Origin: Nitrososphaerales archaeon
Lineage (GTDB): Archaea; Thermoproteota; Nitrososphaeria; Nitrososphaerales; CADDZS01
Assembly (NCBI GenBank): GCA_030041355.1
Contig: JASHNZ010000011.1
Location: 97,165 to 161,164 of the forward strand
Direction of reading: 5' to 3'
DNA length: 64,000 bases
The translations under genes and the position numbers were made by a program. Below the pieces are notes generated by a model. That model did no database searches and was not told the DNA's origin. It saw only the letters and a list, made by a program, of their open reading frames with translations. How positions within the stretch are numbered: position 1 is the stretch's first letter; each line of letters begins with the position of its first letter. Of this stretch, positions 55,650 to 59,070 are shown piece by piece.

Positions 55650-58600
55650 CATCCGACGCGCTGACGCTGTTTGGTGGATGGCTGGGCTTGGAAGACGAAG
55701 AAGGGCGTGTCAAGCTGCGATAAGCCTCGGGTAGGAGCACGAATCCGCTGATCCGAGGATGCCCGAATGCGACTTCGTAAGAGGAACCTTCGGGTTTCTC
55801 TTGTTCCCTTTGGGGAACGTGAACCTCTGCGAAAGGAAACATCTGAGTAGCGAGTGGAAAAGAAATCAATTGAGATACCGTAAGTAGCGGCGAGCGAAAG
55901 CGGCATAGTCCAAACTGAATCGCTGCAGTAATGCAGTAGAGATGTGGGGTGTGCTTGTAGCGTTTGCAACCCAATCTCGCCGTAGCTGAAGTTGGCTGGA
56001 AAGCCACATGGTACAGGGTGAAAGTCCCGTAAGCATCGATCGAGAATGGGGTTGTGCTACAAACCGAGTACTTGGCCTTGGCAGTGGCTAAGGAAGACGG
56101 GGGAAAGCGGCCTCCAAGACTAAACACTATCCAAGACCGATAGCGCAATAGTACCGCGAGGGAAAGCTGAAAAGTACCCCGAAAGGGGTGTGAAAAGCGC
56201 CTGAAACCAGATAGTTACAGACGTGCACTGCATGAAAGGGCCGGAACACATCTCTGAAGGCAACTCGCAAGAGTTGTCTGACGATTGTGCCCTAGACCCA
56301 GTGTGGTGCATTCCGTCTAGAAACACGGGCCGGGGAGTTTACTGTCATGGCGAGCTTAAGGATTTGATAGTCCGGAAGCGAAGGGAAACCGACTAGCACG
56401 CAACTGGCTTGTCCAGCGAGGTGCGGGGTCTGAAAGGGCCTGGAGTCATGGCGGTAAGACTAGAAACCAGACGATCGTGTCTCGAGTAGGATGAAGCCGG
56501 GCGAAAGCCTGGTGGAGGTCCGAAAGGGTCTTGACGTGCAATTCAGTCCCCTAACTCGAGACAAGGGGCCAAAAGCCAATCTAGTCTGGTGATTGCTAGT
56601 TCCCACCGAAGCAGATCCTAGTCTGGCCTGGAGGGATGTGGCCGACGCTGTAGAGCACCAATGGGAAGCCAAGGGTCCGAAAGGGCCCAGCTTGCTTTTG
56701 AACTCCGAATGTGTCGGCGCAAGAGAACTCCGGAGACGGGTTTATGTGGGGTAAGCCTCATAACCAAGAGGGGGACAACCCAGACTAAAGTTAAGGCCCC
56801 AAAATTTTGGCTAAGTGTCAAACAAAAGAGCGTCCCTGAGCTTAGACAGCAGGGAGGTAGGCTTAGAAGCAGCCACCCTTCAAAAAGTGCGTAACAGCTT
56901 ACCTGCCGAGCTTAGAGGCCTCGAAAATGGACGGGGCTCAAGCCAAGTGCCGATACTTTAGACAACAAGTAATCAGCTTGTTTGTGGTAGGTGGGCGTAG
57001 AGGTTGGGTAGAAGTAGGGTCGTGAGATCCCATGGACTGACTCTCTAGTGCAGATCCCGGTGGTAGTAGCAGCGTAGTCGGGTGAGAATCCCGATAGTCG
57101 AAAGGGCAAGGTTTTCCTGGCAACGCGTCGTCGACCAGGAGTAAGCCGGTCCTAAGTGTAATCCCAACGGCGTTACACGAAGAGGGAAACTCGTTAATAT
57201 TCGAGTGCCATCTTGGTGTCGTTATTGTCGGCTCATTTTTGCCTTGAGTTAGGGCAAGCAAGGTTGTCGCCTTGTTTAATTGATTTAGGGCGGGGGAGTG
57301 TCGTAATGACGAGAACTCGTCCGAGACAAGAATAGCAGGCCATATGGTCTGTTTGCTTGATACTGAGGGACAGTGAAAGAAGTGAGCCTAAGACACCTTG
57401 GTGTCCGTACCGAGATCCGACACAGGTGTCCCTAGGTGAGAAGCCTAAGACTTATCGGGTGTACTGCGGGTAAGGGAACTCGGCAAATTAGCCCCGTAAC
57501 TTAGGAATAAGGGGTGCCTGCGATCTTTGTGAGAAACAGGGATCGCAGGTTGCAATAACTAGGGGGTCCCGACTGTTTAATAAAAACACAGTAAACTGCT
57601 AATCCGAAAGGACTTGTACAGTTTATGAATCCTGGCCAGTGGCGGTACCTAAAACCTGGGTTCAACCGGGCTAAGGGCCGCTAAACGCCGGGAGTAACTC
57701 TGACTCTCTTAAGGTAGCCAAATGCCTTGTCGGGTGAGTTCCGACGTGCATGAATGGACCAACGAGGGCCCTACTGTCCCTATCCGCGACCCGGCGAACC
57801 CACGTAACGTGGACGAACAGTCCACGAACTTCCATCGGGGAGAGAAGTCCCTGTGGAGCTTTACTGCAGCTTGTCGCTGCGGTGCGGTTCCGATTGCAGA
57901 GTGTAGTCGGGAGCCTTCGAAGGAGGACCTCCGGGTCTTCTGGAGGCAAAAGTGTAACACCGGCCTTTCGGAACTGCGTCGCTAACCTCGCCAGAGGAAC
58001 ACCGGCAGGTGGGCAGTTCGGCTGGGGCGGCACCCCCTTGAAAAAGTATCGAGGGGGCCCAAAGGTTGGCTCATCCGGGTCAGAACTCCGGAGCAGAGGG
58101 CAAGGCCAAAAGCCAGCTTGACTGGAAATTCAAACGCGAAATTTTCAGAGGCGAAAGCCTGGCCTAGCGATCCTCTATGTCCTCACAGTTGGAGGCTAGA
58201 GGTGACAGAAAAGTTACCCCAGGGGTAACAGGCTCGTCGCGGGCGAGAGCTCCAATCGACCCCGCGGTTTGGTACCTCAGTATCAAAACTGCATGGGGTA
58301 GGACAGCAGTAATGCGGTCATGCGAATCGGCTTATAACGGTGGAACCCTCCATTCCTAAAATCAGGAATACTTCCGGGCGTGTCAACGAGACACGAAGAG
58401 CCGGAGTGGAATTTTTTTAGGGCAATACCGTGGGAAGTCCAACAGGATAGCTTCAGTTTCACCTGATCTTCTTCAATCAGGTTCAAAGCTTTGTTGTGAC
58501 CCCGTAACGACTGAGGGCGTCTATTTTAGGACGTTCAATGAGATAGCAATTGAGGTATGCTATCACACGCCGACTCCTCTTTAGCTGAAAAGAGGATGGA

Positions 58601-59070
58601 GATATAGTCTACAACTTCTGGTAACAGAAGGAAATTGTGCGATGTCGGCTCTTCCCATCCCGGTCCTGCAGCAGGGGCCAAGGGTGGGGCTGCTCGCCCA
58701 TTAAAGGGGAACGTGAGCTGGGTTTAGACCGTCGTGAGACAGGTCGGTCTCTACCTGATGGAAGCGGCGGTCATCTGAGGGGAAGTTGTCCCTAGTACGA
58801 GAGGAACAGGGCAACGTGGCCTCTGGCGTACCGGTTCTTCGACAGAAGAATAGCCGGGCAGCTAAGCCATCTTAGATAAGAGCTGAAGGCATCTAAGCTC
58901 GAAGCTAGTCCCGAGAAAAGATGACCATCCGTTATGTGCGTCCCTCGCAAGGGGGACGCACGTTCGGTGAAGAGCTGTCATAGAAGATGACGTTGATAGG
59001 AGAGAGGTGTACGCTGGAAGGCTACGGCCGACCAGTTCAGCCTGCTCTTACTAACCGCTCAAAGCGTTGG
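55650..59070 (+). rRNA. rrl: 23S rRNA, interrupted by an insertion of about 362 nt (mature length about 3.06 kb)
   Basis: 5' region has GGTGGATGGCT...CAAGCTGCGATAAGCC. The sarcin-ricin loop AGTACGAGAGGAAC is at 58795. Flanking complementary processing stems lie at 55609..55652 and 59077..59118. Ends are accurate to about 10 nt. Confidence 0.9.
58279..58640 (+). other. Intron-like insertion in 23S rRNA within the peptidyl-transferase loop (ORF-less)
   Basis: The conserved sequence GGUACCUC|GAUGUCGGCUC (E. coli about 2494-2512) is split by 362 nt. The junction is ambiguous by 1 nt because a C flanks both sides. No credible ORF lies inside. Confidence 0.7.

Follow-up and report, generated by a model that had tools for sequence, protein, structure and literature searches.

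The rRNA operon and its insertion

The DNA analyzed here is a 64-kb stretch of contig JASHNZ010000011.1 (hereafter the window), and the element in question is a 362-nt insertion in its large-subunit (LSU, 23S) rRNA gene. The window carries an archaeal rRNA operon in which the small-subunit (SSU, 16S) gene is separated from the LSU gene by a 176-nt spacer (55473-55648) without a tRNA gene. The SSU gene has exact matches to the Cren771F and Cren957R primer sites, and these sites, together with the layout of the operon, make the host a probable thaumarchaeon (Nitrososphaeria). The LSU gene spans 3426 nt, compared with 2987 positions in the Rfam model, and would come to about 3064 nt in its mature, spliced form.

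The insertion was mapped by MAFFT alignment of the LSU gene with E. coli rrlH (locus L140). One large insertion, 362 nt in length, follows E. coli position 2500, and in a local Rfam scan the match to the LSU model picks up again with the C at model position 2596, aligned to window position 58640. The flanking sequences, GGUUUGGUACCU upstream and CGAUGUCGGCUC downstream, are those of the peptidyl-transferase loop, and the exon bases on both sides are archaeal (GGUACCU and CUCUUCCC). A first-pass annotation, made from the letters of the stretch alone, had described an intron at the L2500 site of this loop and had named an alignment as the means to verify it. The insertion is real, and the alignment returned a single gap of about 360 nt after E. 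coli position 2500.

The coordinates given in that annotation, 58279..58640, describe the same insertion but are shifted by one base, with a C on both sides, an ambiguity that it had itself pointed out. We fixed the boundaries at 58278..58639 because the rules for group I introns demand a 5' exon ending in U and an intron ending in G. Seventeen bacterial homologues start with T, not C, and for that reason the insertion site after U2500 is unambiguous in them.

The remaining LSU insertions in the alignment to rrlH measure 49, 59, 34 and 23 nt, which is the size of ordinary archaeal expansion segments. No second intron was found in the LSU or SSU gene by Rfam, or in the LSU gene by the alignment to E. 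coli rrlH, in agreement with the earlier statement that this is the sole intron of the 23S gene. We also accept the argument that the insertion must be removed to give a working ribosome.

Secondary structure of the insertion

A full P1-P9 secondary structure of the type adopted by group I introns was derived by hand, and every helix is intact (Table 1). The 5' splice site is marked by a U58277•G58296 wobble, and a U•G pair occupies this position in 18 of 18 sequences compared. The predicted guanosine-binding pair is G58509-C58609 in P7, adjoining the bulged C58508. Two hairpins, P7.1 and P7.2, between P7 and the 3' strand of P3 are the hallmark of subgroup IA in the Michel-Westhof classification. 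Both are present here (58516-58535 and 58542-58564) and both show compensatory changes in relatives.

Programs that were not given the manual structure recovered much of it. The single-sequence minimum free energy (MFE) fold has a z-score of -2.73 and contains the peripheral hairpins, including the inner P5 hairpins, the P6 arm, P7.1, P7.2 and P8. RNAalifold found P2, P3, P4, P5, P6, P6a, P8 and P9, as well as the exon-proximal part of P1, and its prediction matches the manual structure in all helices outside the pseudoknot. Together with the covariation and homology described below, this structure leaves us highly confident that 58278..58639 is a group I intron of subgroup IA, most likely IA3, located at the classical LSU/2500 site of an archaeal 23S rRNA gene.

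Table 1. Positions of the rRNA genes, the intron and its structural elements in the window
Feature	Position	Strand	Description and basis
Archaeal SSU rRNA	53975..55472	+	Rfam
Archaeal LSU (23S) rRNA, host gene	55649..59074	+	Rfam RF02540, 2621.6 bits, full model 1-2987; alignment to E. coli rrlH
Group I intron, 362 nt, without ORF	58278..58639	+	Insertion 3' of the U that corresponds to E. coli U2500; Rfam, MAFFT, manual fold
P1	58273..58300 (58273-82/58290-300)	+	Exon UACCU 58273-58277 and intron 5' end with guide GGGGUA 58295-58300
P2 hairpin, GNRA loop GUAA 58309-58312	58302..58319 (58302-08/58313-19)	+	Manual fold, covariation in 6/6 pairs, RNAalifold
P3 5' strand UCGGC	58327..58331	+	Pairs with GCCGA 58569-58573; core pseudoknot with P7
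P4-P5 region	58337..58431	+	P4 58337-42/58426-31; J4/5 GAA; P5 58346-49/58419-22
P5 branched extension	58350-58409	+	Manual fold; inner hairpins recovered in MFE fold
P6, P6a, P6b, P6c hairpin	58432..58503	+	P6 58432-34/58501-03; P6a 58438-44/58492-99; MFE fold, covariation, RNAalifold
P7 5' strand ACGACUG, C58508 bulged	58507..58513	+	Pairs with UAGUCU 58605-58610
P7.1 and P7.2	58516..58564	+	P7.1 58516-21/58530-35; P7.2 58542-48/58558-64; both in MFE fold
P3 3' strand GCCGA	58569..58573	+	Manual fold, covariation
P8 hairpin	58575..58596	+	Manual fold, covariation, MFE fold, RNAalifold
J8/7 and P7 3' strand UGGAGAUAUAGUCU	58597..58610	+	Rfam alignment; most conserved group I core sequence
P9.0 and P9	58611..58638	+	P9.0 ACAA 58611-14/UUGU 58635-38 around P9 58615-20/58625-30, GNRA loop GUAA 58621-24
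Terminal G (omega-G), last intron base	58639	+	Directly before LSU model resumption; 3' exon from C58640 (E. coli C2501)
67-aa antisense ORF, TTG start	58283..58486	-	Sole sizeable ORF inside the intron

Covariation of the helices and matching of guide to exon

Covariation was assessed in two collections of homologues: an archaeal set of 13 distinct intron sequences, including that of the window, and an alignment (A2) of 6 archaeal and 12 short bacterial L2500 introns. In the archaeal set, 27 pairs had changed on both sides, compared to 13.6 ± 2.3 in shuffled controls, and none of 500 shuffles reached this number. The catalytic core of these sequences is invariant, and P2, P6a, P6b, P7.1 and P7.2 vary in compensatory fashion, with double changes in 5 of the 6 pairs of P7.1 and 2 of the 7 pairs of P7.2.

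The broader alignment gave the same picture. Across A2, 89.7% of cells were paired, versus 39-42% when the partners were slid by 1-3 columns. Compensatory changes occurred in 34 of 61 pairs, including pairs of P2, P3, P5, P6a, P8, P9 and P9.0, and the 145 compensatory cells compare with 50 ± 5.6 in shuffles, 0 of 500 of which matched the alignment by any measure. Double changes were found in every pair of P2 (6/6) and P9.0 (4/4) and in most pairs of P5 (3/4), P6a (6/7), P8 (6/8) and P9 (5/6); in P3, C-G is replaced by U-A in four sequences. P4 was 100% paired and the P7 pairs were invariant in the 18 sequences. The J8/7-P7 core was likewise invariant, but GATATAGTC belonged to the pattern by which homologues were sought.

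The insertion might nevertheless be the remnant of a group I intron that has decayed and lost self-splicing, with host-aided removal, a fragmented 23S rRNA or a pseudogene as the outcome. Its lack of a homing endonuclease and its Rfam score (see below) would suit such a relic, and group I introns that remain unspliced or depend on proteins exist, for example a chlamydial intron that is reportedly unspliced. However, the core is invariant, and in no fewer than 13 distinct archaeal sequences compensatory changes have kept the peripheral helices paired, a pattern that points to selection on the fold. The surrounding rRNA also scores as an intact, full-length LSU. Moreover, the insertion interrupts a single-stranded segment, the peptidyl-transferase loop, whereas bacterial intervening sequences of the RNase III type occur at helix tips (PMC11270868). 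We consider decay very unlikely and retain the group I intron as a maintained ribozyme fold.

The pairing between the intron and its 5' exon was compared across domains of life. At exon position -5 and the final guide base, 37 bacterial introns have C:G and 15 archaeal introns have U:A, with no discordant case, such that the bacterial exon GGCACCU goes with guide GGGGUG and the archaeal exon GGUACCU with GGGGUA. As the guide tracks the exon exactly, P1 is supported. For the same reason, the intron is fitted to an archaeal host and is not a bacterial contaminant.

Several observations weigh against the group I assignment or limit its support. Rfam model RF00028 aligned end to end (model 1-253) with 58272..58631, taking in the signature J8/7-P7 sequence GGAGAUAUAGUCU, but the score of 32.9 bits (E 9.3e-7) is below the curated gathering cut-off of 50 bits, and the intron was missed by a default Rfam scan of the whole window. 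No covariation support comes from P4, P7 or most of P1, which are invariant. P10 is weak (about 2 pairs by sequence inspection), and the omega-G and GAUAUAGUC core of the homologues, being required by the search pattern, cannot be counted as independently conserved. The IA3 subgroup, which seems the most likely one, is suggested by the insertion site and by P7 strands equal to those of the published intron IA3.3. Finally, we infer self-splicing in vivo from the predicted fold, and a protein cofactor might be required. With regard to the first of these points, RF00028 gave no significant archaeal matches in a previous survey, where subtype models were needed (PMC6125680), and the sub-threshold score obtained here agrees with that experience.

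Homologous introns in bacteria and archaea

GTDB species genomes were scanned with the pattern GATATAGTC-N(12-42)-GCGATGTCGGCT, which combines the group I core with the 3' exon of site 2500. The pattern matched at least 120 loci. Among the matches listed, nearly all were bacterial 23S genes, with hosts in the Patescibacteria, Omnitrophota, Chloroflexi, Actinomycetota and Planctomycetota, a Coxiella endosymbiont and others, and the sole archaeal locus was that of an unclassified archaeon (L067). When the archaeal 3' exon was used in the pattern, 15 metagenome contigs matched. An intact intron of 336-412 nt lies between archaeal exons (GGUACCU / CGAUGUCGGCUCUUCCC) in L067 and in 13 of these 15 contigs; L067, the contigs and the window together yield the 13 distinct sequences of the archaeal set. 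The flanks were called archaeal LSU by Rfam in the loci checked. Of 10 related loci examined, 8 gave an RF00028 match to the L2500 insert (30.9-45.9 bits), and an nhmmer profile of the archaeal family matched bacterial L2500 introns with E-values down to 2e-20.

The bacterial and archaeal introns were compared for coding capacity. Dozens of bacterial 23S genes contain homologous L2500 introns, many of them with a LAGLIDADG_2 homing endonuclease; bacterial forms of about 800 nt have a sense ORF of about 200 aa (LAGLIDADG_2, E 2e-36). All archaeal copies found here, in sixteen LSU contigs besides the window, are ORF-less. The window intron is not overlapped by any sense ORF of more than 60 aa and encodes no homing endonuclease of the kind that marks a mobile intron. 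The intron had been annotated as ORF-less apart from an antisense frame of 67 aa, and this was confirmed; the antisense ORF has no Pfam match, and neither its strand nor its frame is conserved among homologues.

These loci also bear on whether the insertion could be an assembly artefact, in which a bacterial 23S fragment with an intron was joined into an archaeal rRNA contig. Metagenome assemblies are prone to chimeras in rRNA regions, the related contig L130 appears chimeric within its intron, and breaks occur close to the 3' junction in this organism's short-read contigs. Against this, both flanking exons are archaeal, the guide base is A instead of G in 15 of 15 archaeal copies, and 13 more intact contigs, assembled independently, have homologous introns within archaeal LSU sequence. 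The chance of an artefact is thus negligible, and we treat the group I intron as a resident of the archaeal gene.

The Logan contigs retrieved end before the intron or begin just after it. Among the Logan short-read contigs of the same organism, ends or starts fall within about 100 nt downstream of the intron, with one calculated end at ~58737 and another start at ~58662. These breaks probably represent a fork of the assembly graph in the highly conserved peptidyl-transferase region.

Relative to the window, exon identity of the archaeal loci was 92-100% and intron identity 78-89%. L067 had both the most similar exons and the most similar intron, and the correspondence was looser among the other loci. 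Exon and intron similarity appears to fit vertical descent in one lineage, without proving it. In a rough neighbor-joining tree (185 ungapped core columns, no support values), the introns from archaea group in a single clade that lies within the bacterial ones. Over the same 185 columns, the nearest bacterial relatives (L006, L028 and L056) have about 74% core identity and the Patescibacteria forms 62-64%.

As a tentative history, the ORF-less L2500 clade may have crossed between bacteria and archaea once, had its guide retuned from G to A, and then become fixed and vertically inherited throughout an archaeal lineage of soil and peat, probably of deep-branching Thaumarchaeota. We raise this possibility because the archaeal clade is nested among bacterial introns, because exon and intron similarity run in parallel in L067, and because the endonuclease is absent. 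A route of transfer from Omnitrophota to archaea (PMC13153191) was considered and set aside as a lead only, since that intron is located at L1917 and our own tree carries no support values.

Three of the loci recovered were unusual. The 23S gene of L056, a metagenome-assembled genome (MAG) of the Verrucomicrobiia, holds two group I introns (1618-1877 and 740-1002), and the one outside L2500 scores 57 bits, above the Rfam cut-off. L120 (CAZHTU010000131.1), labelled Undinarchaeota, has the bacterial-type exon GGCACCU and a 780-nt L2500 intron that equals the one in the Planctomycetia contig L121 in length, ends and guide, so that mis-binning is probable. L130 (Ga0207060_10517, minus strand, ~1-650) is missing the 5' half of the intron, and its upstream sequence resembles an inverted LSU fragment by eye, so that the contig appears to be chimeric inside the intron.

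Junctions of the intron and the bulge-helix-bulge motif

The first-pass annotation had proposed that the insertion is an archaeal bulge-helix-bulge (BHB) intron joined by RtcB; the splicing endonuclease EndA would make the cuts. The archaeal host, an RtcB gene at 2841..4337 (Pfam RtcB) and the fact that introns of archaeal rRNA are commonly of the BHB type (PMC6125680) all favor this idea. The junctions were therefore scored for a 4-bp central helix between two 3-nt bulges with 4 bp on each side, using both boundary pairs and both polarities. The best score in either polarity was 7 of 12 pairs, a value equalled by 35% of random LSU site pairs with the same spacing. One arrangement of mirror polarity does contain a 4-bp central helix (GUAU/AUGU), but the polarity is wrong and flanking helices are lacking (1/4 and 2/4 pairs). 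The junctions, for which folding had been suggested as a check, form no BHB in either polarity.

The processing stem of the 16S rRNA in the same operon, which holds a canonical BHB, served as positive control and scored 11 of 12. Its central helix is formed by CGCA (53942-45) and UGCG (55510-13), with bulges AGU (53946-48) and AAA (55514-16) and long flanking helices, including 53949-53963/55495-55509. As the intron junctions score at the level of chance while the control gives 11/12, a BHB mechanism is unsupported, and the entire insert is explained by the covarying group I fold. We regard a BHB intron as extremely improbable here. RtcB is indeed encoded where the annotation had placed it, but it has no bearing on this intron because RtcB is a housekeeping ligase for tRNA and pre-rRNA that is expected in any archaeon. 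The BHB of the 16S stem, rather than the intron, would be the likely substrate of EndA and RtcB.

The processing stem of the 23S rRNA was also observed. Segments 55609-55623 and 59105-59119 are complementary at 93% over 15 nt, and the stem extends to about 40 bp in a cofold. Its MFE structure has two 3-nt bulges that are 6 bp apart, not 4.

Comparison with known introns

Thirty-nine group I introns have been reported in archaeal rRNA genes (Nawrocki, Jones & Eddy 2018, PMC6125680). Two of them, IA3.3 and IA3.2 (LQMP01000030.1:65273-66091 and LQMQ01000054.1:4017-4815), are IA3 introns at LSU/2500 from MAGs of Baker et al. 2016 that carry the GenBank annotation Euryarchaeota (PMC6125680). The window intron shares domain of life, host gene and insertion site with both, and its P7 strands ACGACUG/UAGUCU, with the second base bulged, are identical to those of IA3.3 (PMC6125680). 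Compared by site, length, ORF and P7 strands, it differs in being 362 nt long and ORF-less, whereas IA3.2 and IA3.3 are 799 and 819 nt and each has a LAGLIDADG_2 ORF (PMC6125680 supplementary table); its host is also probably a soil thaumarchaeon and not of their lineage. None of the 39 introns is an ORF-less LSU/2500 intron (PMC6125680). Thus, the kind of intron, the site and the domain of life are all precedented, and what is new here is the ORF-less form and its clade.

The other archaeal group I sites are LSU/1923, 1931 and 2593 and SSU/1498 (IB4 and IA3), with four introns assigned to Thaumarchaeota (PMC6125680). These are rRNA ribozymes as well, and many are ORF-less; unlike the window intron, they occupy different sites, and the thaumarchaeal ones belong to subgroup IB4.

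In CPR bacteria, group I insertions in 23S genes cluster around the peptidyl-transferase centre (Tsurumaki et al. 2024, PMC11270868). The bacterial L2500 introns share with that of the window a homologous core and fold, the same site, and the P1-P9 plan with P7.1 and P7.2. They differ in having a C in the exon where archaea have U, with the guide matched to the exon. Their short forms (260-300 nt) are without the extended P5 and P6 arms, and the long forms include the LAGLIDADG_2 ORF.

The BHB introns in the 16S and 23S genes of Thermoproteales resemble the window intron in that they are intervening sequences that have to be removed from the transcript. In those introns, the junction forms a BHB and both EndA and RtcB are needed, whereas the window intron has a ribozyme core and no BHB.

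Proposed splicing and its implications

A group I core splices by two transesterifications, with no need for an endonuclease or RtcB. In our model, the intron would fold within the pre-rRNA into the P1-P9 ribozyme, with guide GGGGUA paired to UACCU at the end of the exon. The P7 pair G58509-C58609 would bind an external guanosine, which would attack after U58277. The terminal G58639, placed by P9.0, would then replace the guanosine, and the freed exon end would attack after G58639. This would join GGUACCU to CGAUGUCGG and restore the peptidyl-transferase loop, and neither an endonuclease nor a ligase would be required.

If the intron is fixed in this lineage, perhaps in the sole rRNA operon, every ribosome of these organisms would depend for its peptidyl-transferase centre on a step carried out by a ribozyme. 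The assignment corrects an annotation trap, as intervening sequences of archaeal rRNA genes should not be taken for BHB introns by default. It also extends the small catalogue of archaeal group I introns by an ORF-less LSU/2500 form, of which no fewer than 13 distinct relatives occur in LSU genes of environmental archaea, and offers a clean case of co-adaptation between the guide of an intron and a domain-specific base of the exon. This clade could act as a lineage marker and as material for studies of cross-domain intron transfer, and in surveys based on 23S the intron could produce a 362-nt length artefact. Knowledge of the mechanism of these introns is unchanged.

Other features of the window

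No tRNA gene was detected by ARAGORN in the 64-kb window, and no 5S rRNA by Rfam. A 15-nt segment within the LSU gene (57357-57371) is 93% complementary to the 5' splice junction (58272-58286); the intron half of this match is unconserved in relatives, and the pairing was rejected as probably due to chance. On the minus strand, an ORF at 5002-5502 that adjoins pyrI carries the Pfam domain RVT_3 (RNase H-like domain), according to the pre-computed annotation of identical contigs.

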